A stretch of 64,000 bases of DNA from an uncultured Dehalococcoidia bacterium (GTDB lineage Bacteria > Chloroflexota > Dehalococcoidia > DSTF01 > RBG-16-68-14), in NCBI GenBank assembly GCA_964418365.1, contig CAYQLM010000003.1, forward strand, positions 150 through 64,149, written 5' to 3'. This document shows positions 919-40,065 of the stretch, piece after piece. Numbering within the stretch: position 1 is the first letter of the stretch; each line of letters starts with the position of its first letter. Below the pieces are notes generated by a model. That model ran no database searches and was not told the origin of the DNA. It saw only the letters and a program-made list of their open reading frames with translations. The position numbers were made by a program, and so were the translations under genes.

Positions 919-3726
919 GTGAACGCGGACAGCTCGAGCCACTGGGATGCCGACGATGGACACCGCCCTTTGAGCCAACCCGCGCGCCCGGCCCTGCGCC
1001 GCTCGATCGCCACGTGGCGCCCGGCCCGAACCCAGGTCCAGGCCGTCGCGCTGCTGGCGGCGGCCGGCTTCGCCTACAACGGCGCGCGCATCCTCAACGA
1101 CAGCCCCCAGCGTACTACGCCGGTCCTGGACAACTTCGATGCCTCGCTGCCCTGGCTGGGCCTCGCGCTGCTGGCGCTCGTCGTGGCGGCGCTCAGCTAC
1201 CGGCCCGTGCGCCTGCATTGGCGCGCAGGCGCGCTGGCCGAGCTCTGGCGCGCCCACTGGGTTGAGATCCTCCTCTTCGCCGGCATCTTCGCCTTCGGCG
1301 TGTTCATGCGCGTCTACCGCTTCCAGAGCTCGCTGCCGCCGTCGGACGGCCTCTGCTGCGAGGAGTCGATCAACGGCGGCGTCGCCTATCGCGCGCTGCA
1401 GGGGATGCGGCCGCTCAACTTCCTGATCACGCGCTGGGGCAGCGCGGCGGGCTTCGCCGTCTTCGGCGAGAACACACTCGGCCTACGCTTCTTCTTCGTC
1501 GTGATGGGCATCGTCACACTCATCGCGTTCTACTTCCTGCTCCGCGAGCTCGTCAGCGTGCCCGTCGCGCTGTTCGGCATGGCGCTCTACGCCGCAGCGT
1601 GGTGGCCTTCGTTGCGCGCGCGTCAGGCTTCCGAAGGCACGATCTACGCCGTGCTGTTCGCGCTCGTCCTCGTACGCGGATTGAAGACGAAGAACCCCCT
1701 CTGGCTGCTCGCCGCCGGCGTGCTGGCAGGGCTGCTGTCATACGAATACGAGCCGTTCAAAGCTGTGCCGATCGTCGGCGCGCTTTTTCTCGGCGCAGCG
1801 GCCGCGCGCGAGGTGCTCCTGCGCGCGCCGATCTCACCCTCTGCCGCCTTGACGCGCGCTCGAGCGCTGACACGCGTCGCATGGCAGCCGCTCATCATCG
1901 CGCTGATGGCGACGGCGGTCGTGCTGGTCCCGATGATCGTCGGCACACACCGCGGCCTCGATCTCTACCTGACCTCCGTGCACCGGCAGGAGGGCGGCCG
2001 CGCGGGCGATACAGTCGCGAGCCAGTGGCGGACGCAGCTCAAGTGGGAGGCGCAGATCTTCCTTCCGATCGGCCCGAACGAGTATCCCACCTCGCCACCG
2101 CGCGACATCCCCGGCAAGGACCTGCTCGATCCGTTGACGGGCTGGCTGGCGCTGGCGGGACTGGTAGGCGGCGTCGTGTTTGCGTTCCGCAGCCTCCGCG
2201 CGCTGTTTGCGGGCTGGGTTATCGTCAGCATCGGCGCGGGGGCGTTGCTGCTGACGGACTTCGGGCCGTGGAAGTTCATCACGCTCGTGCCGGTGCTCAT
2301 CGCGCTCATTGCGTTCCTGCTGGATGACGCGCGCCGCCTCGTTACGGACCGTTTCGCGCAACGCGGCGCGATGGCGTTCGGCGCGCTGCTCGTCGCCGGC
2401 GCAGCGTTCATCTTCTGGTGGAACGCTGACACGCTCTTCCGGCAGGTGGCGCCGTCGAGCGTTGTCGCCCAGAGCTACGGCGGCGAACGGGCGATGATCT
2501 ACTCCGTCTGCCACGATCTGCAGGGACGCCCGAACGACAACTACACTGTCGCGTACAGCGGCGACGGCGGGCTCAATGGCTTCGCGCAGCGCCGTGACAG
2601 CTTCGACGCGGAGCTGCGTGCCTGGGGCGACTTCATCTGGATCTGCCACGACGTGAAGGGTGCCGCGGTGCCGGCTGTGGAAGAGCTGTGGCCACTGCGG
2701 GATCTACCGCCCGGGCCGCTGACGATCGTGGTCGCAGATCCGCTTGGGAAGATCGACGACGCTCTTGCGCAACTGCGTCAGGTATACCCGTCGCTCGGCG
2801 ACCCCAGCCGGCGCGGCGGCGGGACGAAGCAGGGGTACGAGTACGTCGAGTACAACTTCGCCAGCGCGAGGGAGTTGGGCACGCCAGGGCTCTCGGCACA
2901 GTACATCGCGGAGAACGACACCCAGGCGCCGGGCCGCGTTGATCCCGTCAACGATCTGAACTGGGACCAGGTCGGGCTCCCGCTTCCGCCGCCGTTCTTG
3001 GTGCGCTGGCGAGGGCTTATCTACTACTCGGGCAGGTCTAGTTCGGCGAGCCTCCATGCGCTGACGGACGAGGCTGTGGTCATCAGCATCGACAACCAAA
3101 TCTTCTATGACACGCGACCAGGGCAACAACGGGACGTGGTGAACGATCTCGTCGCCGGATGGCATCAGGTCGACATCGCGCTCGAAAAGCAACACGCGGG
3201 CGGCAGCCTTCGCCTGGTGTGGACATCGCCCGATGACCGAGACCGCCCGGTCTTGGCACAAGATCTCTTCCCGATTTCATCGATCGCCGGTTGGGTACAC
3301 CAGCGCTCGCTCGGGCTGCCGAGCGATCCGAAACAGCAGATCACGCAGCGCTTTGATTTCGAGCCGCACTTCGTCTCAACCGCGCCGCTGACGGCAGCTG
3401 CGCGGACGACGTCGTCGGAACCGATCCTCACGGAGGAGCGCTGGCGCGCCGTATGGCACGTCGATCAAGCGGGCGATTACACGCTGCGCGCAGACTTCCC
3501 GGCGGGGACGGTGACGCTGCTGGTCGACGGCGCGCAGGTGGCGTCGGAACAGACACCGCTTTCCGGCCCTGGCCAACTGCAAGCAACGGTCTCACTCACG
3601 GCGGGGCCCCACACGGTCGAGCTGGTGCAGAAGCTCGACACTGACGTACCAGTCGCGGGGCTCACGCTCTCTGCCATCCCGCCCGGTCAGTCACAGCCCA
3701 TGCAGATGAACGTGACGCCGTACTAG
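919..3726 (+). CDS. GT-C-fold polytopic membrane glycosyltransferase candidate with a large C-terminal beta-sandwich (PA14/lectin-like) domain
   Basis: 935 aa. N-terminal ~450 aa have more than 10 predicted TM helices. The first extracytoplasmic loop contains CCEESINGG, matching the DESAIINGA loop of the paralogs at 15788 and 18103. The C-terminal ~350 aa are soluble, with a PA14-like stretch (DYTLRADFPAGTVTLLVDGAQVASEQ...TAGPHTVELVQKL). GTG start; exact start uncertain. Confidence 0.55.
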   Translation: MNADSSSHWDADDGHRPLSQPARPALRRSIATWRPARTQVQAVALLAAAGFAYNGARILNDSPQRTTPVLDNFDASLPWLGLALLALVVAALSYRPVRLHWRAGALAELWRAHWVEILLFAGIFAFGVFMRVYRFQSSLPPSDGLCCEESINGGVAYRALQGMRPLNFLITRWGSAAGFAVFGENTLGLRFFFVVMGIVTLIAFYFLLRELVSVPVALFGMALYAAAWWPSLRARQASEGTIYAVLFALVLVRGLKTKNPLWLLAAGVLAGLLSYEYEPFKAVPIVGALFLGAAAAREVLLRAPISPSAALTRARALTRVAWQPLIIALMATAVVLVPMIVGTHRGLDLYLTSVHRQEGGRAGDTVASQWRTQLKWEAQIFLPIGPNEYPTSPPRDIPGKDLLDPLTGWLALAGLVGGVVFAFRSLRALFAGWVIVSIGAGALLLTDFGPWKFITLVPVLIALIAFLLDDARRLVTDRFAQRGAMAFGALLVAGAAFIFWWNADTLFRQVAPSSVVAQSYGGERAMIYSVCHDLQGRPNDNYTVAYSGDGGLNGFAQRRDSFDAELRAWGDFIWICHDVKGAAVPAVEELWPLRDLPPGPLTIVVADPLGKIDDALAQLRQVYPSLGDPSRRGGGTKQGYEYVEYNFASARELGTPGLSAQYIAENDTQAPGRVDPVNDLNWDQVGLPLPPPFLVRWRGLIYYSGRSSSASLHALTDEAVVISIDNQIFYDTRPGQQRDVVNDLVAGWHQVDIALEKQHAGGSLRLVWTSPDDRDRPVLAQDLFPISSIAGWVHQRSLGLPSDPKQQITQRFDFEPHFVSTAPLTAAARTTSSEPILTEERWRAVWHVDQAGDYTLRADFPAGTVTLLVDGAQVASEQTPLSGPGQLQATVSLTAGPHTVELVQKLDTDVPVAGLTLSAIPPGQSQPMQMNVTPY

Positions 3727-4355
3727 GCAGGCGCAAGCACGTACGCCCGCTCCATGAACAGGCCCCGCAGCAGCGCGTGGCTCCCAACGGCGCGCAGTCC
3801 ACTCTCCGCAAACTCCTGCTCGAGCTCGCTGGCGGAGACGTAGTAGCGCGGCACCGGCTTCCGCAGCAGCAGACCGTAGAAGAGCCACCAGATCGCCATC
3901 CGATGCGGTTGGTAGACGGCCACGACACGTCCGCGCGCGACACGGGCCAGCTCGCGCAGCACGGCGATGCGCGCCTCGCGCGGCAGGTGCGACAGCAGCC
4001 TGAAGCAGACCGCGGCATCGACGCTCTTGTCCGCGAAGGGCAACCGCTCTCCTTCGCCGCGCACGAGCGCCGCTTGGGCCGAGAGCGCGCGCGCCCGGCC
4101 GAGCATCGGCAGCGAGATGTCCGCCCCAACAACGCGGTAACCGGCCTCCGCGAGCCAGCGCGCCATCCGTCCCGTGCCGGTCGGCAGGTCGAGCATAAGC
4201 GCAGCGGCCGGCAGCCCGGCGATCGAACGCATCAGGAGCCGCCGCTCGAGTTGGTTGACGAAGCGGCCGCGAAGACCGCGAAAGCGCGCGTCATCGTACG
4301 TCGCAGCGATCTCCTCGCGCTGGTAGTGCCGCTTCGCACCGTAGGTCTCGGTCAC
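3723..4355 (-). CDS. Class I SAM-dependent methyltransferase (Methyltransf_11-like)
   Basis: 210 aa. Motif I DLPTGTGRMARWLAEAGYRVVGADIS and a post-I acidic residue. Its start overlaps the upstream gene stop (ATGA coupling). Confidence 0.8.
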   Translation of the reverse strand: MTETYGAKRHYQREEIAATYDDARFRGLRGRFVNQLERRLLMRSIAGLPAAALMLDLPTGTGRMARWLAEAGYRVVGADISLPMLGRARALSAQAALVRGEGERLPFADKSVDAAVCFRLLSHLPREARIAVLRELARVARGRVVAVYQPHRMAIWWLFYGLLLRKPVPRYYVSASELEQEFAESGLRAVGSHALLRGLFMERAYVLAPA

Positions 4356-5326
4356 GACAAGGCACCTTGCGTCTCGCCGAGGAGATCGCGCAGCACGTCG
4401 GGCGTCAGTGTTCCCTTGGGGAGCGTCAGCCGCTCGCAGCGCGCACCGGCTAGCCCGCGTGCGAGCACGTCGCGCCAGCGCGAGGCGCCGGACTCATCGC
4501 TTCGCAGCGCGTCAGACACACCGTAGACGTCGTCGTGGCGCGCCGCGGCGCGCGCGAGCGCTTCAATCACGTCCTCTGCCCGCGCCGGTTCGCTGCGCCG
4601 TCCCGATCCGTTGCCGCGTTCGAGCCAGACAATCCGTGACAGCGCACCGCCGTTCGTACCGCCCTCGAGACCGAGCTCATCCGGCGCAACGTGCACCAGC
4701 GGGTCGAGCCGTCTAGCGGTCACTAGCGCCGCGGTCGCCGCTGCCCGCAGCGCGAGGCCCCGCCGTGCAGACAAACGTCGCGCGAGCTGAGGGGCTGCGG
4801 CGAGCGCCGCGCTCCGTAGAGCGATGACGCGAAGCACGGGCGTCACAACGCCCGCCGCCGAGACGCCGATGTACTCGTCGCCCGAGAGACGCGCGCCGGA
4901 TCCGAGCGCCGCCAGCAGCAGCGCCGTCTTGCCCGAGCCGGTCTCGCCGGCCAGCACGGTGGCTTTGCCGCCGGACGCGAACGCCGCGCCCGTGATGAGC
5001 GCGATGTCCCGCTGGAGGAGCAAGCGCCGGAGCGCCGGCAGCAGCGCGATGTGCAGCGCGAGATACTCGCGCAGGAGCGGGCTGCGCCAGGAGAGCGCGA
5101 GCCGGCCATCGGGTCGCGCCGTCACGCCACAGCGCCACGGGACGCCCCTGTAACGTCCTTGCGCAATATCGCCGGTCACATCCTTAGCGCCCAGTTCCAA
5201 GAAAAGCGTCGGCACTGCGTGCGGCGCAACCTCGCTGCCGAGGCAGCGGGCGAGCAGCGCCGGCCGCTTCGAGGCGCGCAGCGTGACGGTGATGTCGGGC
5301 GGAACGTCGAACGACCAGTCGCTCAT
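4352..5326 (-). CDS. HprK-related P-loop kinase-domain protein
   Basis: Walker A VLAGETGSGKTALLLAALGSGARLSGDEYIGV resembles the HPr kinase/phosphorylase C-terminal domain. Start placed at MSDWSF (ATG 5324-5326), overlapping the upstream GT2 stop. The longer ORF-track N-terminus (to 5647) is antisense overlap of the GT2 gene. Confidence 0.5.
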   Translation of the reverse strand: MSDWSFDVPPDITVTLRASKRPALLARCLGSEVAPHAVPTLFLELGAKDVTGDIAQGRYRGVPWRCGVTARPDGRLALSWRSPLLREYLALHIALLPALRRLLLQRDIALITGAAFASGGKATVLAGETGSGKTALLLAALGSGARLSGDEYIGVSAAGVVTPVLRVIALRSAALAAAPQLARRLSARRGLALRAAATAALVTARRLDPLVHVAPDELGLEGGTNGGALSRIVWLERGNGSGRRSEPARAEDVIEALARAAARHDDVYGVSDALRSDESGASRWRDVLARGLAGARCERLTLPKGTLTPDVLRDLLGETQGALS

Positions 5327-6342
5327 TGCGCGCCGGCGCTGCGCGTCCAGAGCGCGCGCAGGCACCACGAACGGTTGCGCGCGGCCTGCTCGCGCACCTG
5401 ACGCCGCTTCGCCGCGTACTTGGGCAGCTGGACGAGCATCGTCGCGAGCGCGAGCAGCGTCGCGGGCGCCAGCGCGAGGCCGTAGAGGAGCTGCCGCTTC
5501 CGTTTCAGGCCGAACTCGAGGGCATTGAACGGCGCACCGATCGTCATCAGCGGTACCATCAGCGCGAACTCCCAGCCGGACATCACCTTGTAGAACGCCA
5601 GGTAGCGATTGCGGATGATACGCACCGTTTTCGTCGCCGTCCCCCACGAAAGGCCGGCCTGCAATCGGTGCTTGTGGTAGACGACGGCGCGCGGCACGGC
5701 CACGGACCGATAGCCCAGCGCGCGAACGCGCAGCCCGAGATCGAGGTCCTCAGCGTAGGCGAAGAAGTCCCTGTCGAACACGTACCCCAGCTCTTCACCT
5801 ACACTGCGTCGGAGCACGATGCAGACGCCGTGCAGGAACAGCGTGTCGTACAGCCGATCCGAGGTCGGCAACCGCTTGTACCCGATATAGCCGAGGCGGT
5901 TCACCTCCGATGTGTACGCGACTGTCGACGCCGCGCGCGTCTCGATGCCGCGGTACTCCGGGTACCAGGGCTGGATGATGTTCGCGTGGCCCGCCGCGAT
6001 CTGCGGTGACGATCGCATTGCATCGATTAGCTCGCGCAGGCACGATCGATGGACGACCGTGTCCTCGTTCAAGAAGACGGCTAAGCTGCCCGTCGTGTTG
6101 CGGAAGCCAATGTTGTTGCCCTCCGCGTAGCCTTCGTTGCGCTCGAGCGTCAGCACGCGTGCGCGAGGATACTGCTCGCGCACCAGGTCACCGCAGCGGT
6201 CGCGCGATCCGTTGTCGATGTAGAGCACTTCGTACTGGTCCGCCGGTAGGTCCTGGTCGAGCACGGACGAGAGGCAGCCATCGACGAACTCGCGGCCCCA
6301 GTAGCCGAGGATGATCACGCTCGCGAGCGGCGCTCCCGGCAT
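5323..6342 (-). CDS. Family 2 glycosyltransferase (GT-A fold)
   Basis: 339 aa. VIILGYW...DQDLPADQYEVLYIDNGSRD, a DxD-like EDLD motif, and a membrane-associated C-terminus. Confidence 0.8.
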   Translation of the reverse strand: MPGAPLASVIILGYWGREFVDGCLSSVLDQDLPADQYEVLYIDNGSRDRCGDLVREQYPRARVLTLERNEGYAEGNNIGFRNTTGSLAVFLNEDTVVHRSCLRELIDAMRSSPQIAAGHANIIQPWYPEYRGIETRAASTVAYTSEVNRLGYIGYKRLPTSDRLYDTLFLHGVCIVLRRSVGEELGYVFDRDFFAYAEDLDLGLRVRALGYRSVAVPRAVVYHKHRLQAGLSWGTATKTVRIIRNRYLAFYKVMSGWEFALMVPLMTIGAPFNALEFGLKRKRQLLYGLALAPATLLALATMLVQLPKYAAKRRQVREQAARNRSWCLRALWTRSAGAQ

Positions 6343-7509
6343 CTATCGCTCGTCCATCAGCAACGCCGTCAGAAAGCCGCCCAACGCCATGTTCGCGCCG
6401 ATAATGATGGTGGTCTGCGCCGTCGCCGCGAGGCCTTCGGTGCGGCCGGAGTGGTGCTTCGCCAGCCACTCGAAGAAGATCACCCCGTCCAGGCCGACGC
6501 CGATCAGGATCAGCAGCGCCGCCAGCGCGAGCATGCGCTCCAGCGTGACGAGGCGGTTGAACAGAATGGTGAGGCCGTCTTCCGGGATGATCTTGCGCTT
6601 CGCCGCATACAGGTGCGTCGAGATGCCGATCATCATCGCGTTCGCGCCGATGATCAGCAGAATTCCGCCCGCGAACACGGGCTGCCACCTCAGCGTGCCG
6701 ATGTGCACGCCGCTCTGCGAAGCGAGCGTGACGCCGAGCGCCAACGCGCCTAGCAGTACGAGCACGAGCCCCGGTACGAGAAAGAGATAGAGGGGCGTAT
6801 TGAGCAGCAGGAAGCGCAGGTGCCGCCAGCCGTCTCGGAAGGTGTTCAGCTTGCTCTCGCCCTGGCGCGCCGAGTACGGCACCGGCACCTCGGCGATGCG
6901 CAGCCCGCGCCTCGAAGCCTTGAGGATCATCTCGGACGCCAGCTCCATCCCGTTCGAGCGCAGCTCCATCTTCTCGTACGCCGCGCGGGTGAATGCGCGC
7001 AGACCGCACTGGCTATCGCCGACGCGCGCGCCCGCGAACAGCCCGAGGAGCATCGTGATCGCCGGCGTGCCGATGACGCGATGGCTCCACGTCATCGAGC
7101 CCGGTGCCAGGTTTTGCAATCGATTGCCCACGGTCATGTCATATCCGTTGCGCAGCGGCTCGATAAGCTGGTCGAGGTGAAGCAGGTCGTACGTGTCGTC
7201 CGCATCCGCCATGACGATGATCTCGCCGCGCGCCTCCGCGAAGCCGCGCCGGTTCGCCGCCCCGTAGCCCTCTACCCGCTCGTCGACGACGGTTGCGCCA
7301 GCGCGCTCCGCTTCTTCGCGCGACCGGTCCGTCGAACCGTTGTCGACGACGATCACCTCGCCCCGCAGGCCGGCATCGCGGAACCAGCGACGCGCCTTCG
7401 AAACGCACGCCGCGACCGTCGCGGCTTCGTTCAGGCACGGCAGCACGACGGAGACGTCGCATTGCGTCTCACGCGCTGTTCGCCGTTCGTCTGCTGCCGC
7501 CGTCGTCAT
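6343..7509 (-). CDS. Polyprenol-phosphate sugar synthase (GT2, Ppm1/DPM1/GtrB-like) with C-terminal TM anchor
   Basis: 388 aa. VVLPCLNEAATV...VVDNGSTDRS...ADADDTYD catalytic core, followed by 4 TM helices, as in GtrB/Ppm1 lipid-monophosphosugar synthases. Confidence 0.8.
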   Translation of the reverse strand: MTTAAADERRTARETQCDVSVVLPCLNEAATVAACVSKARRWFRDAGLRGEVIVVDNGSTDRSREEAERAGATVVDERVEGYGAANRRGFAEARGEIIVMADADDTYDLLHLDQLIEPLRNGYDMTVGNRLQNLAPGSMTWSHRVIGTPAITMLLGLFAGARVGDSQCGLRAFTRAAYEKMELRSNGMELASEMILKASRRGLRIAEVPVPYSARQGESKLNTFRDGWRHLRFLLLNTPLYLFLVPGLVLVLLGALALGVTLASQSGVHIGTLRWQPVFAGGILLIIGANAMMIGISTHLYAAKRKIIPEDGLTILFNRLVTLERMLALAALLILIGVGLDGVIFFEWLAKHHSGRTEGLAATAQTTIIIGANMALGGFLTALLMDER

Positions 7510-7527
7510 CGATCGCTCATGATAGGA

Positions 7528-9645
7528 TCACTGGCCAATGCTGTAGACCTCGTACGGCCCGATCTCCGTGACGAGTTTCGCCGACGGTAGCTGGCTCAGC
7601 GCCGCGTCTGCGTTGCTCGAGTATGTAGCGATGGCGTACCGCACGTGCGATTCGCTCAGCGCGCTCGCGAGCGCATCGCCGCTGAGCTGTCCTTGGTACA
7701 GCGCCATCACGGGCGGGCGCTCCCACTGCCCGATGATAGCCTGTGAAAAGACAGGCTGTACCTGCCACAAGACGCCCGGCAGATGCAGGCTCACGTCGTC
7801 GGGCGCGAGCACGACCGGGCCCTCCGGCGCGTGCGTGCGCAGGTAGTCGATCATCTGCCGCTCGTCCGGCTTGATGCGCCACTCGCGCGAGAGCAGCCGG
7901 TCCTTCCCTCCGAGGAAGATCGAGTGCTCCGTGCCCTTCACGATCGTGTCCGTGCTCGCCCACGTGTAGTACGTGCCGTGATCCGCCGGAAAGTACAGCT
8001 CCTGCACGAGCAGCGCGCCTGAGAGGAGCACGGCAGCCGCGGCTGCGGGCGCCAGAACGCGCAAAACTGACAGACTGCTTCGCCAACGGCGCGATGATCG
8101 CAGCAGGCGGTGGACGGCGTACGCCCAGACGATCGCGGCCGGCGCCATGTACGGCAGACGCGCGGTCAGCTCGGCGGACGCCAGCTTCGCAGCGACGGTG
8201 GAGAGCGGTGGGACGAAGAACCAGGGCAGCCAGCCGAGCATCGCGGCGAGCACGGCCTGATGGGCCGGCAGCCGCCGCGCCCGCCACCAGATCAGCGGCG
8301 CGAGCACGAGCGAGCCGATCATCAGCGGGTGCAAGATGAGGTGGAAGTTGCCCATGATCATCTTGCCGAGAAGGTGGACGATCTTGAACTCCTCGCGCCA
8401 GGTGAGCGTCGTGTCGAACAAGGCCGGCCACGAGGTGTTGAAGGCGTGCCAGACGATGAACTGGCCGAACGTGAACGCGGCGAGCGGCAGCCCGAGCGCT
8501 GCCGACCACAGCAGCGGCCGCCAGGAGCGCTTCGTCGCCGACCGGAACAGCGCGAGGGCAAGCAGCGTAACGCCGAGGAACAGCAGCGGCTGCGGGTGCA
8601 CGACGAAGAGCGCGAGGCAGACGAGAGCGAAGCAGGCCAGCGTGCTCGGCCGCGCGCGCCGGAAGAACTGCGCGACGAGGAGCAGTCCGATCGGGAACAG
8701 GATGTACGTCCCGACCATCTTGTCCTCGCTCATGCGAAACAGGAAGGTTGCGCCGAGCCCTTCGTCGTGCGACATGTCGATCAGCGCGTAGCCGAGCTGG
8801 ATCAGCACCGCCAGCAGCGCCACCGAGCGGCCGCGGAACAGACCCTTCGCGAGCGCATACGTCGCCATCAGCGCGAACACGATCAAGATCGGCGTGAGAT
8901 CGTTCATCACGACGTTCTCAGCGCTGATGCCCGCCGTGCGCGCAATGGCGGCCTGGAAGACGACCCAGGCGTTGATCTCCATCCTGGGGTAGGCCGCCTC
9001 GCCGACGCCGACCGGGTGGAGCGGATTGATGTGGCCGCTGTGCAAGTAGCTGTTGACGTAGGTCATGTAGCGCCAATCGTCGAAGTTGCGCGCGAGGCGA
9101 TCGCCGCCCCAGTACGGCGACGTCAGGACGCCGCCCGCCGCGACGGCGAACAGCAGCAGCAATATCAACGTCGATGCGTTCCAGCCGCGAACGGTGCGCG
9201 TCAACCAGACGCCGGCCGCCGGCGGCGCAACGAACGCCGAGCCCGCGGCGACCACCGCCGCCACCGCGACGTGAATTCGGATGCAGGCTTCGAGACTCGT
9301 GCCGAGCCAGAGCGCGAGCAGCCCCGACGGCGCGGCGATCGCGAGACCGAGCGGGAACGCGATCGCCAGCCGTTCGACGATGTCCGCGCGCGAACGCGGC
9401 AGCAGCGCATCGTGCAGGAGCAGCCCCGGCACGATGATCATGCTCAGGAAGACAAGGATGGCTGCAGGGTAGCCGGGGAGTCCGGAGAAGACGCGCGCCT
9501 CGAGCGCCAGCAGCTCCAGGGCCAGCACCACCGCCCCGCCGAGCGCTCCGCGCGCGAGCCGGAGCATCAGGGCGCTGTCCAGCGCGGCTCCGGCCGTCAG
9601 CTCGCCGGGGCGGGCGCGCGCTTGCTTTCGAAGGCTCTCCAGCAT
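7528..9645 (-). CDS. Polytopic membrane protein (~14 TM) with C-terminal soluble domain; possible GT-C-like glycosyltransferase
   Basis: Start set at MLESLRKQ (ATG complement 9643-9645), which has a GGGGGAG RBS 8 nt upstream. First loop after TM region: YWGGDRLARNFDDWRYMTY (acidic DD). Last gene of the minus operon 3723..9645. Confidence 0.45.
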   Translation of the reverse strand: MLESLRKQARARPGELTAGAALDSALMLRLARGALGGAVVLALELLALEARVFSGLPGYPAAILVFLSMIIVPGLLLHDALLPRSRADIVERLAIAFPLGLAIAAPSGLLALWLGTSLEACIRIHVAVAAVVAAGSAFVAPPAAGVWLTRTVRGWNASTLILLLLFAVAAGGVLTSPYWGGDRLARNFDDWRYMTYVNSYLHSGHINPLHPVGVGEAAYPRMEINAWVVFQAAIARTAGISAENVVMNDLTPILIVFALMATYALAKGLFRGRSVALLAVLIQLGYALIDMSHDEGLGATFLFRMSEDKMVGTYILFPIGLLLVAQFFRRARPSTLACFALVCLALFVVHPQPLLFLGVTLLALALFRSATKRSWRPLLWSAALGLPLAAFTFGQFIVWHAFNTSWPALFDTTLTWREEFKIVHLLGKMIMGNFHLILHPLMIGSLVLAPLIWWRARRLPAHQAVLAAMLGWLPWFFVPPLSTVAAKLASAELTARLPYMAPAAIVWAYAVHRLLRSSRRWRSSLSVLRVLAPAAAAAVLLSGALLVQELYFPADHGTYYTWASTDTIVKGTEHSIFLGGKDRLLSREWRIKPDERQMIDYLRTHAPEGPVVLAPDDVSLHLPGVLWQVQPVFSQAIIGQWERPPVMALYQGQLSGDALASALSESHVRYAIATYSSNADAALSQLPSAKLVTEIGPYEVYSIGQ

Positions 9646-9730
9646 CTCGGTTCGGCTCCCCCAGAGATCTAACGCGAGGGGGCCGCTCAGATGAACGGTA
9701 GCGGCCGGAAGCCCCGCCCGGCAACGGGTG

Positions 9731-10759: not shown

Positions 10760-10771
10760 GTGAGGCCCTGC

Positions 10772-14648: not shown

Positions 14649-14660
14649 GAGCACGCTACC

Positions 14661-15785: not shown

Positions 15786-15787
15786 CG

Positions 15788-20001: not shown

Positions 20002-20041
20002 GCGTCCAGCACGTGACGCAGCGCTACGGGGCAACGGGCTG

Positions 20042-23252: not shown

Positions 23253-23265
23253 CCTGAGACACAGC

Positions 23266-25784: not shown

Positions 25785-25801
25785 TCCTACAGCACGGCGA
25801 A

Positions 25802-27295: not shown

Positions 27296-27378
27296 GGCAA
27301 GGGCTCGCGCCAGGGTGCTCGGTCTCCTTTCACTGGTAGCAAGTATAATAGGCGCGCGTCGTTGAGGGCGCTGGCGTC

Positions 27379-28653: not shown

Positions 28654-28854
28654 GTCGTCAGCGTCTCAGCCGGTATCGACCAAAGCCTGTGGCCAAGCAC
28701 CACCTGCTCCCTTCGCGTTGGATAACGCAGGCACCGCGGCTTTGTAACAGCCTCCAAGGGGCCTGGTTTGAGTTCGCCGGCCGGGCGCACGGCAGTATAT
28801 GGACCGCTCCGCTGAGCCGTCAAGGCGAGGGCCTTGTCGGCACGACCGCTGCCG

Positions 28855-30219: not shown

Positions 30220-30356
30220 GGAAGAACGCCGGATCCTAGCGATGGTGTCCGAGCGCGGCGGTGGGAGCGCCACCAACCATGGAAGCTGCGAGGCTCCAGC
30301 AGCGGCGCTGCATCACGAACAGAATCGCGGGGCGGCGCAGGCCATCATGGTGCTCC

Positions 30357-31133: not shown

Positions 31134-31159
31134 ATATGGGCGTTGGACAGCTCCGACGC

Positions 31160-33446: not shown

Positions 33447-33457
33447 CCCACCGCTCC

Positions 33458-34270
33458 TTACGCGCGCGCCCGCCAGGTGGTGATCAGGAAATCGCTGGCG
33501 CCGGGCATTCGGCGAGCAAGGGCATCGAAACGGCGCAAGATCAGCCGTGCGACACGTCCCGGCATCAGGCTGAGCAGCGTGCCCCAGCCGGGGAACGCCC
33601 ATAACAACGAAACGCCGTAGACGGCTTCCAGGTCGAGACAAGGCTGGCCCATCTTCTTCAGCCTCCCCAGTGTCGTTTCAAAGGTGTGCTCATGCGGGAC
33701 GGGCGTATCCCAAAACTTGTTCTTGCCGGGCTGGATTATTCCCACGCGACGTCCGATGCGATATAGCACCCTACTGCCGCGGCACGAGATGCCGCCGTAG
33801 TTCACCAGGCCGATGATGGCCAGACCGCCTGGCTTCAAGATGCGCGCGATCTCCTGCATGCCCTTCTCCGGGTTCGCGAAATGGTCGAGCGAAGACTGAC
33901 AGAGCACGCGGTCAAAACTGTGATCGCGGAAGGGTACCACTTCGCCGATCGCCTTGAAGAGCTCAAGGCGCATGCCCACCCCCATCGCCCTCGTCTGCGC
34001 CTTCGAGATCATTGCGGGCGATGGCTCCAGCGCGAGCACGTCCCAGCCATGGTCGTGCAACGCGGGGGCGTGCAGGGCGGAGCCACAGGCGAGATCCAGC
34101 ACACGTCCTGGTGTGCCAGCCACCGCCTTCTCTTGGAACGCGTCTTCCATACGCACCAGGATGAAACTGTTGTCCGGCCCGCGCGGCCAGTTCTCCCAGA
34201 GGGGCTCCGGCGCCCAGTCGAGATCGACGTTGCCGAGGGTTGCCGAGGGTGCGTGTGGCTCGTTTGTCAC
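33458..34270 (-). CDS. Class I SAM-dependent methyltransferase (Methyltransf_11-like)
   Basis: 270 aa. VLDLACGSALHAPALHDHGWDVLALEPS, FDRVLCQSSLDHF, LKPGGLAIIG. Confidence 0.75.
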   Translation of the reverse strand: MTNEPHAPSATLGNVDLDWAPEPLWENWPRGPDNSFILVRMEDAFQEKAVAGTPGRVLDLACGSALHAPALHDHGWDVLALEPSPAMISKAQTRAMGVGMRLELFKAIGEVVPFRDHSFDRVLCQSSLDHFANPEKGMQEIARILKPGGLAIIGLVNYGGISCRGSRVLYRIGRRVGIIQPGKNKFWDTPVPHEHTFETTLGRLKKMGQPCLDLEAVYGVSLLWAFPGWGTLLSLMPGRVARLILRRFDALARRMPGASDFLITTWRARA

Positions 34271-35658
34271 GGCTGAGTTGCTCCTTCTGGCGCGGCAGGC
34301 CGCGCCCTGGGGTAACGCATGTTATCCCAACGCCGGTAGAAGGCAAGACGTAACTTGGACTCGAGGCTCGAGGCCAACGTCGTCGTCAGGGGCAGGAGGC
34401 GGCTCCACTTCTGAGCCGGCTCGGCAGACTCGCGACAGTACTCCACCAGTCCTTCCAGGACGCGCTCCCAGCGATATGCTTCCTTCTCCTTCCGCAGGTT
34501 CTCCTTGCACTGCACCACGAGGGCGCTGTCATCGGCCAGCCGAAGGATGGCTTCCGCCAGCGCGCCTTCGTTACGCTCTGGCACAGCGATTCCCAGCGGC
34601 CGGCGGGCGACCAGCTCGGCCCACACGTCGCCCTGGGTACAGACGATGGGGAGCTCCGTCCACAGCAAATCGAGGAGGCGAGAACGGAAGGAGAAATGCG
34701 TCTCAAGATTGTCGAAGTACGTGCAGATGCCAATGTCCGCCTCGCATAAGTAATTCACGGTGTCCTCGTATTCGATCCAGTCGAAGTTGAAAAAGACGAA
34801 CTTGTCCAGCAGGTCCAGCTCGCGGCAGAGCTGGTACGCGCTTCGCTGAGTACCGCCACCAAGGCCATGCAGCTTGGGAGCGTCGGTGTCTGGGTTATCC
34901 GGGTGTTCCGTGCCGAGGAAGAAGAGTTTAATGTCATGTCGCTGTTCGCTGATGCGATGGATGGCGTGGATCAGCGTCTCCACGTCGTACCATTCAATGA
35001 TGCCGCCGTTCCAAATGAGCAGCGTGTCCGTGGGCAGGATGCCGGGCCATACGCCTTTCAGCACACGACGCGTTGGCCTGGGCTCGTTGGGCCGGACGCC
35101 GAACGGCGCGAGTACGAGCAGCTTGGCGAGCCAGTGGTCGTCGTCGTACGTCTCAGGAGTCACCCGGCCGAGGGCGCTCAGCATGCCGAAATAGAGATCG
35201 CGCTGCCGCAGCGTGGCGCAAAGGATGCTGTCTGCCAGGAGCAGTTGCACCATCAGGTCGCGCGACAAGGAGTTGAAGAATGTGGTTTTGCGGGAGTCGT
35301 CGATACCGAAGAACTTCGCAACTTCAATCCATTCCGTAACGTACGGCGTGAACATGTCCAGCACCAGCCGCTTGCTCTGAAGCAGTGGAAGCAGGAAGAG
35401 CGGGAAGCGACTGCCGATCACAATGTCGCTCTTGCGCGTGGCCGCGGTCAACGCGCCGCGAGTGTACGGGACCGCGCGGAAGGGAACATCGGCCGCGATC
35501 TCGTCAGGCGAAGGCGTCGCCAGCGTCACTTGGGCGCCGGGCACGTTCTCGGCCAGCACGCGGGCGATGTGATAGGCGCGGATGCCCGGGCTGGCCATCC
35601 GGCGGCCGGTGCGGTTCTTGGTCGTGACGAGGATGCGTGGCCCTCCGTTCACGATCAT
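34267..35658 (-). CDS. GT-B glycosyltransferase, paralog B
   Basis: 463 aa. RMASPGIRAYHIARVLAENVPGAQVTLA ... YEDTVNYLCEADIGICTYFDNLETHFSFRSRLLDLLWTELPIVCTQGDV ... AILRLADD. ATGA overlap with the neighbouring genes. Confidence 0.6.
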   Translation of the reverse strand: MIVNGGPRILVTTKNRTGRRMASPGIRAYHIARVLAENVPGAQVTLATPSPDEIAADVPFRAVPYTRGALTAATRKSDIVIGSRFPLFLLPLLQSKRLVLDMFTPYVTEWIEVAKFFGIDDSRKTTFFNSLSRDLMVQLLLADSILCATLRQRDLYFGMLSALGRVTPETYDDDHWLAKLLVLAPFGVRPNEPRPTRRVLKGVWPGILPTDTLLIWNGGIIEWYDVETLIHAIHRISEQRHDIKLFFLGTEHPDNPDTDAPKLHGLGGGTQRSAYQLCRELDLLDKFVFFNFDWIEYEDTVNYLCEADIGICTYFDNLETHFSFRSRLLDLLWTELPIVCTQGDVWAELVARRPLGIAVPERNEGALAEAILRLADDSALVVQCKENLRKEKEAYRWERVLEGLVEYCRESAEPAQKWSRLLPLTTTLASSLESKLRLAFYRRWDNMRYPRARPAAPEGATQP

Positions 35659-36977
35659 ATCCTCAGCAGGAGTGACCTGAGCGTACGGATCCGCCGGGTG
35701 ATCTCATGGCCCGCGATGCGCGAGATGAGCGGCCCAACCCGTTCGCCCTTGGGCTTTGCGATCGACTCGCCGTCGTTGCAGAACTTGATCAGCGGCTCGA
35801 GCGCGACCTCCCAGGTCATGCAATGCTTGATGGCGTGGATATTGCGCTTGCACTCCTCGTAGAACTCGCGGTCGTCCAGGAGCCTCCGGATAGCGCCAGC
35901 CAGGCCAGGAACGTCGCGTTCCTTGACCGTCAGGCCGAGGCGGTGCTCTTCTACCGATTCGGCTAGCACGTCGCCCTTCGTGCAGATGAGGGGTACCTCT
36001 GCCCAGAAGACGTCCAGAAAGCGCGTTCGCAGGGAGAAGTTCGTCTCAAGCCCCTCGAAGTAGGTACAGACGCTGAGGTCCGCTTCCAGCGTGTAGTTCT
36101 TCATCTCTTCGTATGGGACCCAGCCGACATCGAAGAAGACACTGCGATTGTATAGCCCGAGTTCCCGTGATAGCGCTACCGCCTCCTGAAAGCGGCCGCC
36201 CAGCCCCAGGTTGTGCAGCCCGGGGTAGGACGCCCCCAGGAACAGGAGCTTCAGGTCGTCACGCTCGCGCGACAGCTTGGCGAGCGCGCTGATGAGCGTG
36301 GCTGGGTCATACCAACCAAGGATGCCGCCGTTCCACAGGATCAACTTGTCCGTCTCCTTGATCCCGGCGTACTGTCCCTTCACTACATGTTTCGTATGCT
36401 CCAGTGGATCGGGACGCACGCCGTGCGGCGCGACGCCGATGAGCTTGCGCAGCGATGGGTCCTTCGTGTGGCTGCGCGGGGTCACCAACCCGAGGCTTAC
36501 CATCGAGCCTAGGTGTGCATCGCGCTGCCGTTCGCTGGCCGCGAGCACGAAGTCGGCGAAGGTCAGCTGAATGTTGAGCAACTTTCGCGACTGCGAGAGC
36601 CAGGCGCCGCGGCGCAGCCGCGTGAAGCCCGGATCGTCCTTGGACGCCTCCGTCCATTCCAGGAGGTACTGCGTAAAAAAGTCCAGTACGAAGGTCTTCC
36701 AGGGAAAGAAGAAGAGCGCGTACGAGGGGAAGCCGGTGGCGATGATGATGTCGTGGGTAGCGATCTCGCGGATCACGGTCAGCTTGGTGTAGTAAACGAG
36801 ACGGCAGGGCGCGTTCTCGATCTTTCCTTGCGCGCTATCCGAGGCAACGGCGAGGGTGACGGACGCGCCGGGCACCTGTTCGGCGAGGACGCGCGCCATG
36901 TGATGAGCGCGGATGCCCGGGCTGGACATCCGCTCACCGTAGGCTGCTCCCGCGAGGATGAGGATTCGCTTCCCCAT
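35655..36977 (-). CDS. GT-B glycosyltransferase, paralog C
   Basis: 440 aa. RMSSPGIRAHHMARVLAEQVPGASVTLA ... YEEMKNYTLEADLSVCTYFEGLETNFSLRTRFLDVFWAEVPLICTKGDV ... AIRRLLDD. Confidence 0.6.
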   Translation of the reverse strand: MGKRILILAGAAYGERMSSPGIRAHHMARVLAEQVPGASVTLAVASDSAQGKIENAPCRLVYYTKLTVIREIATHDIIIATGFPSYALFFFPWKTFVLDFFTQYLLEWTEASKDDPGFTRLRRGAWLSQSRKLLNIQLTFADFVLAASERQRDAHLGSMVSLGLVTPRSHTKDPSLRKLIGVAPHGVRPDPLEHTKHVVKGQYAGIKETDKLILWNGGILGWYDPATLISALAKLSRERDDLKLLFLGASYPGLHNLGLGGRFQEAVALSRELGLYNRSVFFDVGWVPYEEMKNYTLEADLSVCTYFEGLETNFSLRTRFLDVFWAEVPLICTKGDVLAESVEEHRLGLTVKERDVPGLAGAIRRLLDDREFYEECKRNIHAIKHCMTWEVALEPLIKFCNDGESIAKPKGERVGPLISRIAGHEITRRIRTLRSLLLRI

Positions 36978-36991
36978 AACAGACTATTAGG

Positions 36992-37456
36992 CTACTTGAC
37001 GGCCACGGACCAGTCGACCCCGGACTCCGCCGGCGTCATGCGCTCTTCATCAGGGTTCTTCTCGTCGTACTTAGACGTGATGTAGTACATCAGCACGGCT
37101 TCCTCGTCACCCAGGACCATGTAGCCGTGCCAGACGCCCGGCGGGATACTGAGCACGCGGCGATCGTTCTCCCCAAGATAGACCCATTTCACCTGCTTGT
37201 GCTCGTCCATCAGGCCCACTTTGAGATAGCCCTTAATCACGAACCAGTGGTCGGTCTGCTTCTGGTGCCGGTGCCACGCGACGACGCGTCCCGGATAGGC
37301 CCAGGTGATGTTGACGTCGCCGCCCATGTCCACGCTACCGTCCCCGGTGAAGCCGAAGACGTCGCAGGCGCGACGGGCGCGGTCATCATCGAAGAGCCGC
37401 GGCACGGAGACGCGGGCGTCAGCGACAGAGTTCCTGGCCTTCGCATCAGTGGTCAT
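36992..37456 (-). CDS. RmlC-like cupin (dTDP-4-dehydrorhamnose 3,5-epimerase-related, short form)
   Basis: 154 aa. WHRHQKQTDHWFVIKGYLKVGLMDEH...LSIPPGVWHGYMVLGDEEAVLMYYITSKYDEKNPDEER parallels the RmlC core (LRGLHyQ..KLVRv.G...DV..D........IP.G.aHGF..L). Confidence 0.6.
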   Translation of the reverse strand: MTTDAKARNSVADARVSVPRLFDDDRARRACDVFGFTGDGSVDMGGDVNITWAYPGRVVAWHRHQKQTDHWFVIKGYLKVGLMDEHKQVKWVYLGENDRRVLSIPPGVWHGYMVLGDEEAVLMYYITSKYDEKNPDEERMTPAESGVDWSVAVK

Positions 37457-37469
37457 GATCTACCTCCCC

Positions 37470-38363
37470 TTACTGTTCGTTCGGTTGCAGCTCGCCCCTT
37501 CTATGCAAGTAATCGGCCAATGCCTCCGGCCAGTCGCGCAGCAGCGGCACGCCGGCTTCCCGCAGCGCCGCGTTCTCAAGCACCGAGTATAGGGGCCTGC
37601 GCGCTTTCGCGCCGAACTCCGCTGTCGTCGTCGGTCTGAGCGAGGCGTTTGTGCCGGTAAGCGAGAAGATCTTGGCGCTGAACTCATACCACGAACAGGA
37701 GCCACCGTTCGTCACGTGGTACGTGCCGTATCGACGCGTGTCCGCGACCGCGAGGAGCTGCTGGGCAAGGTCGTACGTGAACGTCGGCGAGAGCACCTGG
37801 TCGTCCACGACGCGCAGGTCTTTGCCGCTGCGGCCCAGCTCGAGCATGCGCTGGACGAAGTTGCCGCCCTTCCCGCCCGATCCGGCCTCGCCGTATAGGC
37901 CCGACGTGCGCACGATGTAGTGCTTCTCGATTCTGGAGCGCACGAGCTGCTCCCCGGCGACTTTGCTTGCACCGTAGACATTGACGGGTGACGGCGCGTC
38001 CCGCTCGCTGTACGCGCGGCCAAGGTCGCCGGCGAAAACGTAGTCGGTGCTGATGAACATGAGCGCCGCCCCGATCTCGCTGCAGGCATCGGCAAGATTC
38101 ATCGCGCCGACGGCGTTCACCTGGAACGCGCGCTCCGGCTCGCTCTCGCAGAGATCGACATTGTGAAACGCCGCTGTGCTCACGACAAGCTCCGGGCTCT
38201 GGTCGCGAAGCGTGGCCAAGAGGCCATCGCGGTCGGTGATCTCAATCGCGTCGCGCGCGAGTCCGATCGTGTCGCCGTGCGGCCAGCGGCGCATGATGTC
38301 GCTGCCGAGCTGTCCTGCCGCGCCAATCACGACGGTACGCCTGCTCACGATTCGTTCGTCCAA
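37470..38363 (-). CDS. rmlD: dTDP-4-dehydrorhamnose reductase (RmlD-like)
   Basis: 297 aa. VVIGAAGQLGSDI, STDYVFAG, VNVYGASKVAGEQ (YxxxK), HVTNGGSCSWYEF. Typical RmlD length. Confidence 0.8.
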   Translation of the reverse strand: MDERIVSRRTVVIGAAGQLGSDIMRRWPHGDTIGLARDAIEITDRDGLLATLRDQSPELVVSTAAFHNVDLCESEPERAFQVNAVGAMNLADACSEIGAALMFISTDYVFAGDLGRAYSERDAPSPVNVYGASKVAGEQLVRSRIEKHYIVRTSGLYGEAGSGGKGGNFVQRMLELGRSGKDLRVVDDQVLSPTFTYDLAQQLLAVADTRRYGTYHVTNGGSCSWYEFSAKIFSLTGTNASLRPTTTAEFGAKARRPLYSVLENAALREAGVPLLRDWPEALADYLHRRGELQPNEQ

Positions 38364-39028
38364 ACGCGGCGTTCCGGCGCCGGCTCATCCGCCTTCTCGA
38401 TGACGCGCGCCGGCACGCCGACCGCGGTCGTCCATGCCGGAACTTCAGAGAGTACAACAGCGTTCGCGCCGATCTTAGCCCCACAGCCAACGCGTACTGG
38501 ACCGAGGATGCGCGCGCCGGTGCCAACGAACACGCCCTCTTCAAGGTGCGGGCCGATATACTCGCCTTGCACGAGACCAATGGAAATCGACGGGCACAGG
38601 ACACAGCCCTTACTGATGAACGTAATGCCATCGATCACCATCTCGCCGTGCGGAATGTACACGCCTTCCTTGATCACAACAGGGTTCCCGATCCGGATCC
38701 CCCAACCGATGGCGCAAACATAGTTCAGCAGCGACGGGATCACAGGGACGCGCCATGTGCGCAGGAGCACTCGCAGCCGGTATAACGCTAGCGCGAAATA
38801 CTCCGACGCGAAGAGCGGCAACCGCAGCGCGTAGAGCGCACGTCCCAGCTTCGTTCGGCACTTGTCCATCTCGCCGCGATGGTACGCGAACACGATCGCG
38901 TCGCGGGCGAGGGCGTGGAAGAGTGATGGGCGTTGGGACTCCAGGTTCTTCGCAAATTGCCGAAGCTGCTCCTCAGGCCGTGGTCGCGTCCCGCTCCAGA
39001 CTGTCCCGGGTCGCTCGAGGTCCGTCAT
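38345..39028 (-). CDS. Left-handed beta-helix (hexapeptide) acetyltransferase, serine-acetyltransferase-like; probable sugar O/N-acetyltransferase
   Basis: 227 aa. SATase-like N-terminal helices (YALRLPLFASEYFALALYRL), then hexapeptide repeats (IGWGIRIGNPVVIKEG..., IGANAVVLSEVPAWTTAVGVPARVI). Confidence 0.65.
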   Translation of the reverse strand: MTDLERPGTVWSGTRPRPEEQLRQFAKNLESQRPSLFHALARDAIVFAYHRGEMDKCRTKLGRALYALRLPLFASEYFALALYRLRVLLRTWRVPVIPSLLNYVCAIGWGIRIGNPVVIKEGVYIPHGEMVIDGITFISKGCVLCPSISIGLVQGEYIGPHLEEGVFVGTGARILGPVRVGCGAKIGANAVVLSEVPAWTTAVGVPARVIEKADEPAPERRVWTNES

Positions 39029-39036
39029 GCCCCGGG

Positions 39037-40065
39037 CTAGAAGACGCTGGGAAACTTGGCAAGGTAGGGATGGAGCTCATCGAGGAGTGTCATCCACGCG
39101 ATGTTGTAGTAGCGCGGGTGGTTAAAATCGATGCAGCCATTCTTCTCGATGCCGAGCAGCATCTCTTCGACTGACTCCAGAATGGTCACGCCCGGCGTAA
39201 ATCCGATCGCTTGGCGCAGCTTCGAGTTGTCGCACTTATAGTCACGCACGAGCTTCGGCAGCGGTGCGTCCTTCAGCTTCGGACGGTACTTGCGCATCTG
39301 CGCAGAGCCTGCTACCAGCATCGCCAGACCGCGGATCTGGAAGTTGTCGTGCACGACGTTAAAGGTCTGCGCGTGCACCTTCTCGCGCGGCGCCTCCAGC
39401 ACCGCAATGTGCGCGCGGGCGACGTCCTTCACGTCAACGAGCGGACGCCACATCCAGCCGCCGCCGTGGAGCTGCAGCTCGCCGTTTTGCACCGCCGCCC
39501 GGACGAACGTGTTCACGACGAGGTCGAAGCGCATGCGCGGGCTGGCGCCGTACACCGTGCCCTGACGCAGCAGGATCGGGCTGAAGTCGTCACTGGCGTG
39601 CTCCAGCAGCGCGATCTCACCCTCGTACTTCGATGTCGCGTATGCGCCGCGCGGCTGGACGTCGGCGGTCTCGTCGTAGACCGGGCCAGGCGGCAGGCCG
39701 TCGTAAATCGAGCAGCTGGAGCCGTAGGACAATCGCTCAACGCCCACCCGTTTGCAGGCCTCCGCCAGCGCTCGGGTCGCCACGGCGTTCATCTGGTGGT
39801 TCGCTTCCGGGTTCATCTCCGCCGTCGGGTCGTTGGAGAGGCCGGCGAGATGGATCACCGCGTCGGCGCCTTCCAGCACGTCATCGCACAGGCTGCGCAC
39901 GTCCTGCTGGACGAGTTCGATCTGGTCGAGCACAGGCGCGAGCGGTTTCTCGCCCCAGTAGAGCCGGTCGACGACGCGCACGTGCCAGTCCTGGTCGACC
40001 AGCATGCGCACCAGCACGGAGCCGATGTAGCCCGCGCCGCCCGTCACGACGACTGTCCTGCTCAC
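39037..40065 (-). CDS. NAD-dependent sugar-nucleotide epimerase/dehydratase (extended SDR)
   Basis: 343 aa from GTG (complement 40063-40065). VVVTGGAGYIGSVLV, catalytic YATSKYEGE. The ORF-track 5' extension (to 40569) has no protein-like content. First gene of the minus glycan operon. Confidence 0.8.
   Translation of the reverse strand: MSRTVVVTGGAGYIGSVLVRMLVDQDWHVRVVDRLYWGEKPLAPVLDQIELVQQDVRSLCDDVLEGADAVIHLAGLSNDPTAEMNPEANHQMNAVATRALAEACKRVGVERLSYGSSCSIYDGLPPGPVYDETADVQPRGAYATSKYEGEIALLEHASDDFSPILLRQGTVYGASPRMRFDLVVNTFVRAAVQNGELQLHGGGWMWRPLVDVKDVARAHIAVLEAPREKVHAQTFNVVHDNFQIRGLAMLVAGSAQMRKYRPKLKDAPLPKLVRDYKCDNSKLRQAIGFTPGVTILESVEEMLLGIEKNGCIDFNHPRYYNIAWMTLLDELHPYLAKFPSVF

Follow-up and report, generated by a model that had tools for sequence, protein, structure and literature searches.

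The DNA analyzed here is a 64-kb stretch of the genome of an uncultured Dehalococcoidia bacterium (Chloroflexota; below, the window), in which positions 919–40065 form a 39-kb cell-surface sugar-polymer locus. By analogy with known systems, we read this cluster as a modular envelope glycopolymer locus that uses the multi-component logic of Gram-positive rhamnose cell-wall polysaccharides (Rha-CWPS), and we give this reading a probability of roughly 55%. The genes were mapped from the codon-position GC pattern together with Pfam and NCBIfam scans of the open reading frames (ORFs) of the window. Three blocks are seen. Module A (919–12058) has the gene of a 935-amino-acid (aa) membrane glycosyltransferase (GT), GTC935, on the plus strand and its remaining genes on the minus strand. 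Module B (12355–24738) lies on the plus strand and is divergent from module A, and module C (24843–40065) lies on the minus strand and is convergent with module B. A first-pass annotation of the same DNA had listed five GT-C enzymes, two polyprenol-phosphate sugar synthases, an ABC exporter and a flippase, and all of these are borne out. Its limits for the cluster agree exactly with the first and last genes.

Pfam matches or Foldseek comparison of predicted structures place each of the five large membrane proteins in the GT-C fold. Hydropathy gives 7–13 segments in each of them. The NCBIfam scan returned no match for any of the five. Sequence searches of the Protein Data Bank (PDB) with GTC825, the profile of the 497-aa protein (mem497) and the DUF6541 profile gave only noise, so the fold was tested through predicted structures. 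The DUF6541-like and 497-aa proteins, which lack family support, were modeled from homologue alignments (A1 and A2, respectively), and both models are helical bundles. With the model of the 497-aa protein (predicted TM score, pTM, 0.87), Foldseek retrieves ArnT (E 5e-5), then STT3, AglB, PglB and AftA, and PMT as well. Distant homologues of this protein carry PMT_2, and D44/D45, after the first transmembrane (TM) helix, are nearly invariant. The DUF6541-like model is AglB-like, including the C-terminal domain. ArnT and AftA score almost as well, and fold similarity alone does not separate the DUF6541-like protein from either of them. Residue D189 is invariant in alignment A1, and a WWDYG-type motif is not among its conserved positions.

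The two adjacent GT-C enzymes of module B (771 and 632 aa) are 39% identical (E 1e-122) and are paralogues. They carry a PDES/QDES motif after the early TM helices (PDES in the 771-aa protein). A genome scan with the single 632-aa protein as query found no relatives. Residues E148/E149 of GTC935 are invariant. Acidic residues with a possible catalytic role are kept in each GT-C family where the first extracytoplasmic loop is expected. Local hhalign comparison of the four GT-C families gave weak links between A1 and A2 (E 2e-5) and between A2 and the GT87 pair (E 2e-5). The comparisons of GTC935 with the other families were not significant, and its assignment therefore rests on the Pfam PMT_2 match, which is found in nine of nine orthologues (best E 1e-8). 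PA14 is matched by five of the nine. The GTC935 profile also matches the PA14 dyad of RsgI3 (PDB ID: 6qe7; E 2e-18). Since RsgI3 senses polysaccharides, this resemblance suggests that GTC935 acts on a glycan acceptor.

The 388-aa and 349-aa GT2 proteins with TM helices (GT2-TM388 and GT2-TM349) match the DPMS/ArnC class along their entire length and are, by sequence, clearly of the polyprenol-phosphate sugar synthase class. GT2-TM388, with four TM helices, matches the Pyrococcus dolichol-phosphate-mannose (Dol-P-Man) synthase (PDB ID: 5mlz; E 1.4e-16) and ArnC (E 3e-13), and its orthologues carry PF26629 (GT2_TM_C). In NCBIfam, it reaches 171 bits with AglJ and 110 bits with a Dol-P-hexose transferase, both below the equivalog cutoffs. 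GT2-TM349 aligns with ArnC over its full length, membrane helices included (residues 2–300; E 1.7e-16), and matches DPMS and GtrB too; its NCBIfam matches are AglJ (130 bits) and PpgS (86 bits). Neither protein passes an equivalog that names a sugar: the scores of the 388-aa and 349-aa proteins are 171 and 130 bits for AglJ (cutoff 325), 81 and 86 bits for PpgS (cutoff 370), and 52 and 68 bits for ArnC (cutoff 529).

An ABC exporter (RgpC/D, GacD/E) occurs together with a Wzx-family flippase (GacK, WpsG) in Rha-CWPS loci (PMC9574508). The backbone, built on C55-PP-GlcNAc, is exported through the ABC transporter. A GT2 enzyme (GacI/WpsA) primes a second chain on C55-P, which cytoplasmic GTs extend and a Wzx-family protein flips. 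The GT-C enzyme WpsI polymerizes this chain and another, WpsJ, attaches it; single sugars are added by separate GT2/GT-C pairs (PMC9574508). As the GT2 enzyme primes on a monophosphate, the Wzx branch needs no phosphoglycosyl transferase (PGT). The backbone initiator (TagO/GacO/RgpG, of the TagO/WecA type) is encoded outside the locus in most species (PMC9574508), so its absence from the present cluster is normal. The first-pass annotation had remarked on the missing initiating PGT, and indeed no ORF of the 64 kb has a PF00953 or PF02397-type match.

We infer the donors, the acceptors, the order of steps and the feeding of the modules into one polymer from the folds, family assignments, gene order and synteny. 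In module C, a 6-deoxyhexose (rhamnose)-containing backbone would be built in the cytoplasm by GT2 and GT4 enzymes on a lipid-diphosphate primer; the WecA/TagO-type enzyme that makes this primer would be encoded elsewhere. The backbone would be methylated and acetylated, with sulfation probably lost in this strain, and would leave via Wzm/Wzt. In module B, the ArnC/AglJ-like GT2-TM349 would prime a second chain on polyprenol monophosphate, to be extended by four GT4 enzymes, modified by a methyltransferase and flipped by Wzx. The paralogous GT-C pair may then polymerize this chain, move it onto the exported acceptor, or both. In the core of module A, the Dol-P-Man-synthase-like GT2-TM388 would make a polyprenol-P-monosaccharide, and two further GT-C enzymes, one with PA14 domains, would use this donor outside the membrane. 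Module C would thus match the exported backbone of the Rha-CWPS scheme, module B its second chain and module A its single-sugar pairs. This is in keeping with the extracytoplasmic elaboration from polyprenol-phosphate donors that had been proposed earlier. The gene grammar of module B is the same as that of lactococcal WpsA–WpsC..F–WpsG–WpsI/WpsJ and supports the wall-polysaccharide model. The combination of Wzm/Wzt, RmlD, GT2 and GT4 enzymes, and methyltransferases in module C supports an exported rhamnose-type backbone.

The methylated, rhamnose-type inventory listed in the first pass is recovered as four SAM (S-adenosylmethionine) methyltransferases (Pfam) and RmlD. Among rmlABCD and RgpA/B/F-type rhamnosyltransferases, only RmlD passes its cutoff (301 versus 224 bits); with the rhamnosyltransferase model, the GT2 enzyme of module C reaches 66.6 bits (cutoff 200). 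However, several results weigh against the wall-polysaccharide reading. The window lacks rmlA and rmlB, and its sole RmlC candidate is a cupin with weak RmlC/WbuC matches. Pfam found no GacJ-like activator and no LCP ligase for attachment to peptidoglycan in the 64 kb, which are possibly encoded elsewhere, and no GtrA-type flippase was found. Only RmlD, YvcK and the nucleotide-sugar dehydrogenase reach NCBIfam equivalog cutoffs. In addition, GT87-type enzymes normally add single sugars, and it is by analogy that the GT-C pair is proposed as polymerase or ligase.

The sulfotransferase-like gene of module C is frameshifted. A 225-aa ORF (30357–31034, minus strand) has no family match, and the PAPS (3′-phosphoadenosine-5′-phosphosulfate)-loop-like sequence LIIITGTGRSGTS lies just upstream in another frame. 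The homologues are intact, uniformly 254 aa long, and begin MIVITGPGRSGTS. The lesion is a 1-nt deletion right after a TGG codon, between 31031 and 31030 and outside a nearby A7 run. The gene starts with TTG at 31120, preceded by AGGTGA. An independent contig from the same population, with 16 single-nucleotide polymorphisms and one indel over 14.7 kb relative to the window, carries the same truncated ORF (P0049). The lesion is therefore probably real, and the gene is probably a true pseudogene. The encoded family has no Pfam model: the protein gave only E 0.2 in Pfam and no match in a sequence search of the PDB. An hhalign comparison with a Sulfotransfer_3 protein gave a probability of 96% (E 2.9e-9). 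The motifs TGxGRxGT (5′-phosphosulfate-loop type) and KDPxFCWT are invariant in the family, as are R171 and S179 (R-x7-S, 3′-phosphate type). In one Wzm/Wzt locus, a distant member of the family has three Sulfotransfer_3 genes around it. The polymer had earlier been described as sulfated. The gene is indeed present, but it is frameshifted in the window; sulfation appears plausible for the relatives but, with a broken gene, doubtful in this strain.

The window matches metagenome contigs at 99.9–100% identity. The nearest genome is a Dehalococcoidia metagenome-assembled genome (MAG) at 93% identity, and the remoter relatives are Chloroflexota/Dehalococcoidia MAGs. Synteny was established by mapping the window proteins onto the fetched relative loci. 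Four genes of module A form a core of two GT-C and two GT2 enzymes (DUF6541-like GT-C, GT2-TM388, the 339-aa GT2 and GTC935). This core is complete in seven other Chloroflexota/Dehalococcoidia MAG or metagenome loci (six mapped together, and L015), with identities of 64–87% for the GT2s and 35–74% for the GT-C enzymes. The closer relatives L003, L004 and L015 also retain YvcK, the dehydrogenase and the divergent GT2-TM/GT4/GT4/GT-C/GT-C operon. In all three, the YvcK/CofD-related gene is kept beside the DUF6541-like GT-C; its conservation hints at a link to cell-wall precursor control. L017 preserves the gene order of module C together with the neighboring Wzx, with other genes in place of the 497-aa GT-C. 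Modules B and C are less conserved than the core. The presumed supercluster thus consists of a conserved core to which cassettes of greater variability are attached. The first-pass annotation had allowed that it might break up into separate cassettes, and synteny does resolve a core and variable cassettes; the five membrane proteins nevertheless remain GT-C enzymes.

The gene between 4352 and 5329, coding for a P-loop protein, has an orthologue of 327 aa in L003. The protein and the adjacent methyltransferase may work as a pair in modification or capping, possibly as a WbdD-like kinase/methyltransferase cap. In L015, a 56% relative, a Sulfotransfer_3 gene (14244–15083) takes the place of this pair (3723–5329), which suggests an interchangeable slot for non-sugar modification. 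The contig L001 lacks (at 7963) the C found at position 23229 of the window, and a GT4 gene (21981–23252) and Wzx are fused there into a 918-aa ORF. Either strain variation or an error in the assembly accounts for this fusion.

The modularity raises the question of whether the modules contribute to one polymer. They may instead be three independent neighboring pathways, with housekeeping glycosylation in A, a Wzx-type pathway in B and an ABC-type pathway in C, and no combined product. Synteny shows separate histories for the modules: in seven other MAG loci that have the core, no B or C genes are detectable within 10 kb of it, the module B GT-C is only 48% identical in L004, a 93% relative, L017 retains module C with the 497-aa GT-C swapped, and GC content is unequal between the modules. 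However, A and B remain adjacent in L003, L004 and L015 across 56–93% identity, as do C and Wzx in L017. Cross-talk would fit two further facts: module B lacks its own Wzy and PGT, and the GT-C of module C requires a lipid-linked donor. We consider independent pathways rather unlikely, though a serious candidate. Alternatively, the target of the locus may be surface (S-layer) proteins and not a wall polysaccharide. The PMT_2-type and oligosaccharyltransferase-like GT-C enzymes would then pass mannose-type sugars or a lipid-linked glycan on to protein, as do actinobacterial Ppm1/Pmt, archaeal AglJ/AglB or the Geobacillus S-layer glycan loci. S-layers are present, and peptidoglycan is absent, in Dehalococcoides relatives. 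Archaeal AglJ is the best NCBIfam match of both lipid-sugar synthases, the PMT_2 matches agree with such a role, and a methyl-capped, ABC-exported rhamnan on an S-layer protein is a known system (PMC2943079). Against this stand the lack of a conserved WWDYG-type motif in the DUF6541-like family, the nearly equal scores of ArnT and AftA, which act on lipid and glycan acceptors, and the PA14 dyad, which suggests glycan binding. Nor does the window hold a WsaB/Wzy_C-type O-oligosaccharyltransferase or an S-layer gene. Protein glycosylation is a minority possibility, and we judge it unlikely.

A lipoglycan pathway resembling that of lipomannan/lipoarabinomannan, in which GT87 and PMT_2-type GT-C enzymes extend a membrane glycolipid from polyprenol-P-mannose, would account for the Dol-P-Man-synthase-like GT2. 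No match goes beyond family level, the search recognized neither PimA/PimB-type nor phosphatidylinositol-related genes, and Wzm/Wzt, RmlD and Wzx fit a polyprenol-linked polymer better. This makes a lipoglycan very improbable. A further and quite speculative proposal concerns the core. It could be an essential envelope system of the whole Dehalococcoidia lineage, which assembles a surface layer almost wholly outside the membrane from lipid-monophosphate donors, either as archaeal-style (AglJ/AglB-like) protein glycosylation or as an independently arisen arabinogalactan-like wall polymer.

The wall-polysaccharide reading calls for no new assembly principle; on comparison, lactococci, streptococci and mycobacteria already provide established examples of the logic. 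The cluster had at first been taken for an undescribed pathway, but the same logic has been published for Rha-CWPS (PMC9574508) and mycobacterial arabinogalactan (PMC13649706). Each supposed anomaly (both export routes, several GT-C enzymes, no initiator in the locus) is already described in known systems. Like Rha-CWPS loci, the cluster joins an ABC exporter, a Wzx-family flippase, a lipid-P priming GT2 and a GT-C transferase in one locus, with cytoplasmic GTs for the side chain, a putative rhamnose pathway, and conserved and variable parts. Unlike them, it belongs to Chloroflexota and not Lactobacillales, unites five GT-C enzymes with two lipid-sugar synthases in one locus, and lacks a GacJ-like activator, GtrA, an LCP ligase, rmlA and rmlB in the window. 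It also has a PA14 fusion on one GT-C and a sulfotransferase-like gene, and its proteins have diverged too far to count as orthologues (no NCBIfam equivalog match).

In mycobacteria, Wzm/Wzt exports the galactan, to which EmbA/B and AftA/B/C then add arabinose (PMC13649706). The cluster shares with this system a Wzm/Wzt-exported lipid-linked backbone and several GT-C enzymes that would use polyprenol-monophosphate donors, and AftA is among the best structural matches. The arabinogalactan initiator, WecA, is encoded elsewhere, as that of the cluster would be. However, Glf/GlfT and the UbiA-type and DprE1/E2 genes of the decaprenyl-phosphate-arabinose (DPA) pathway are missing: the window has no Emb/Aft or DPA-pathway (UbiA, DprE1/2) match, at best 44 bits against 330 for GlfT1, and 172 bits against 400 for the galactan exporter Wzt. 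The Wzx flippase and the many GT4 enzymes of the cluster are a further difference. The pairing of a GT2 synthase with GT-C enzymes in the core of module A resembles the three- and four-component systems (GtrA/B/V, CsbB/GtcA/YfhO, GacI/J/K/L and GT136), and the C-terminal carbohydrate-binding region on one GT-C resembles the GT136 prototype (PMC8035078, PMC11127046). In contrast to these systems, no dedicated small or MATE flippase lies beside the pair, and one synthase is shared by two GT-C enzymes with an extra soluble-type GT2. The slg loci of Geobacillus/Paenibacillus, whose S-layer glycans include a methyl-capped, ABC-exported rhamnan, have in common with the cluster a rhamnose pathway gene, Wzm/Wzt and methyltransferases that could cap the chain (PMC2943079). 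The window has no match to a WsaP-type initiator or to the WsaB (Wzy_C) oligosaccharyltransferase, and no slg locus has been described with multiple GT-C enzymes. Judged by its genes, the cluster is not an orthologue of the Rha-CWPS, arabinogalactan or slg systems; the hallmark genes of the latter two are absent.

The window has a GC content of ∼65%, and real genes show codon-position GC values of ∼0.65/0.47/0.85. GC content falls to 0.60–0.64 between 26 and 46 kb. The left boundary, 919, is the start of the GTC935 gene. At the right boundary, 40065, the minus-strand epimerase gene begins in its 342-aa form; its ORF is readable out to 40569, and the orthologue in L017 has 342 aa. An enoyl-CoA hydratase gene (40298–41068) marks the end of the cluster. 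The true start of Wzm is probably near 33446; its orthologue in L017 has 264 aa. Two ORFs were rejected as drawn: the N-terminal third of 25802–28063 (753 aa) overlaps the acyltransferase gene, the real gene coding for 497 aa, and the real protein within 4352–5647 (431 aa) has about 325 aa. All genes are listed in the table.

Table. Genes of the cluster, with positions in the window, strand and supporting evidence (TM, transmembrane; SAM, S-adenosylmethionine; SDR, short-chain dehydrogenase/reductase).
Gene product	Position	Strand	Evidence
GTC935, GT-C (PMT_2-type) with C-terminal tandem PA14/Ig-like carbohydrate-binding region	919–3726	+	PMT_2 28.2 bits (cutoff 26.1), ∼10 TM
SAM methyltransferase	3723–4355	−	Methyltransf_25/11, E about 1e-18
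P-loop protein, weakly HprK-related kinase-like	4352–5329	−	TIGR04352 24.9 bits, well below cutoff; GETGSGKT P-loop
GT2 glycosyltransferase, 339 aa, conserved core	5323–6342	−	Glycos_transf_2 79 bits
Polyprenol-phosphate sugar synthase (GT2-TM388), conserved core	6343–7509	−	GT2 + 4 C-terminal TM helices
DUF6541-like GT-C membrane glycosyltransferase, 705 aa, conserved core	7528–9645	−	
YvcK/CofD-related UDP-GlcNAc-binding protein	9731–10759	−	TIGR01826 307 bits (cutoff 196)
Nucleotide-sugar 6-dehydrogenase	10772–12058	−	TIGR03026 346 bits (cutoff 190)
Second polyprenol-phosphate sugar synthase (GT2-TM349)	12355–13404	+	GT2 + C-terminal TM
Two GT4 cytoplasmic glycosyltransferases	13401–15785	+	Glycos_transf_1/Glyco_transf_4
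GT-C (GT87/PMT_2-type), 771 aa	15788–18103	+	GT87 34.4 bits (cutoff 25); ∼13 TM
GT-C paralogue, 632 aa	18103–20001	+	PMT_2 26.1 bits (at cutoff) and GT87
SAM methyltransferase	19985–20833	+	Methyltransf_11 81 bits
Two GT4 glycosyltransferases	20830–23252	+	stp1/stp2-like, below cutoff
Wzx/MOP-family flippase, 12 TM	23266–24738	+	Polysacc_synt_3 75 bits, Polysacc_synt 56 bits
GT2, weakly rhamnosyltransferase-like	24843–25784	−	Glycos_transf_2; TIGR01556 66.6 bits (cutoff 200)
GT-C membrane glycosyltransferase, 497 aa (mem497), no Pfam match	25802–27295	−	Model pTM 0.87 + Foldseek
Acyl_transf_3 membrane O-acyltransferase	27379–28653	−	96.7 bits
GT4 glycosyltransferase	28855–30276	−	Pfam
Sulfotransferase-like gene, frameshifted	30357–31120	−	1-nt deletion between 31031 and 31030
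Small SAM methyltransferase	31160–31789	−	Methyltransf_11 42 bits; DLGCG motif
Wzt ABC ATPase without C-terminal carbohydrate-binding domain	31790–32671	−	ABC_tran; TagH 171 bits, galactan Wzt 172 bits, both below cutoffs
Wzm ABC-2 permease	32652–33641	−	ABC2_membrane 39.7 bits; weak KpsM and galactan Wzm matches
SAM methyltransferase	33458–34270	−	Methyltransf_11 79 bits
Two GT4-like glycosyltransferases, 463 and 440 aa	34267–36977	−	Pfam
Cupin, WbuC- or RmlC-like	36992–37456	−	dTDP_sugar_isom 29.5 bits; WbuC 32.6 bits (cutoff 42)
RmlD, dTDP-4-dehydrorhamnose reductase	37470–38363	−	TIGR01214 301 bits (equivalog cutoff 224)
Hexapeptide-repeat acetyltransferase	38345–39028	−	Hexapep; EpsC/CysE-like below cutoff
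SDR nucleotide-sugar epimerase/dehydratase	39037–40065	−	Epimerase 146 bits, from residue 173 of the long ORF

Directly after the cluster, 41154–43604 (plus strand) codes for an 816-aa membrane protein with ∼15 TM segments flanking a weak spermidine-synthase-like domain. It was considered as a sixth GT-C and rejected as spermidine-synthase-like. The low-GC stretch holds, at its far edge, the sole tRNA gene of the window, tRNA-Arg(CCT) (45279–45356, plus strand). Further downstream (46020–53755) is a group of large, probably secreted proteins, namely a 1243-aa BNR/Sortilin-Vps10 repeat protein, a tannase-like hydrolase and a BT_1020-like beta-propeller protein.

The architecture of the Chloroflexota cell envelope is still debated, and to our knowledge no envelope-glycan pathway has been characterized in this phylum. 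Two membrane families without a prior assignment, the DUF6541-like proteins and one without a Pfam match, can now be called GT-C enzymes on the strength of their predicted structures, which aids annotation and the planning of experiments. The locus offers a concrete set of envelope-glycan genes, partly conserved across the lineage, that is useful for work on enrichment cultures or in heterologous hosts.

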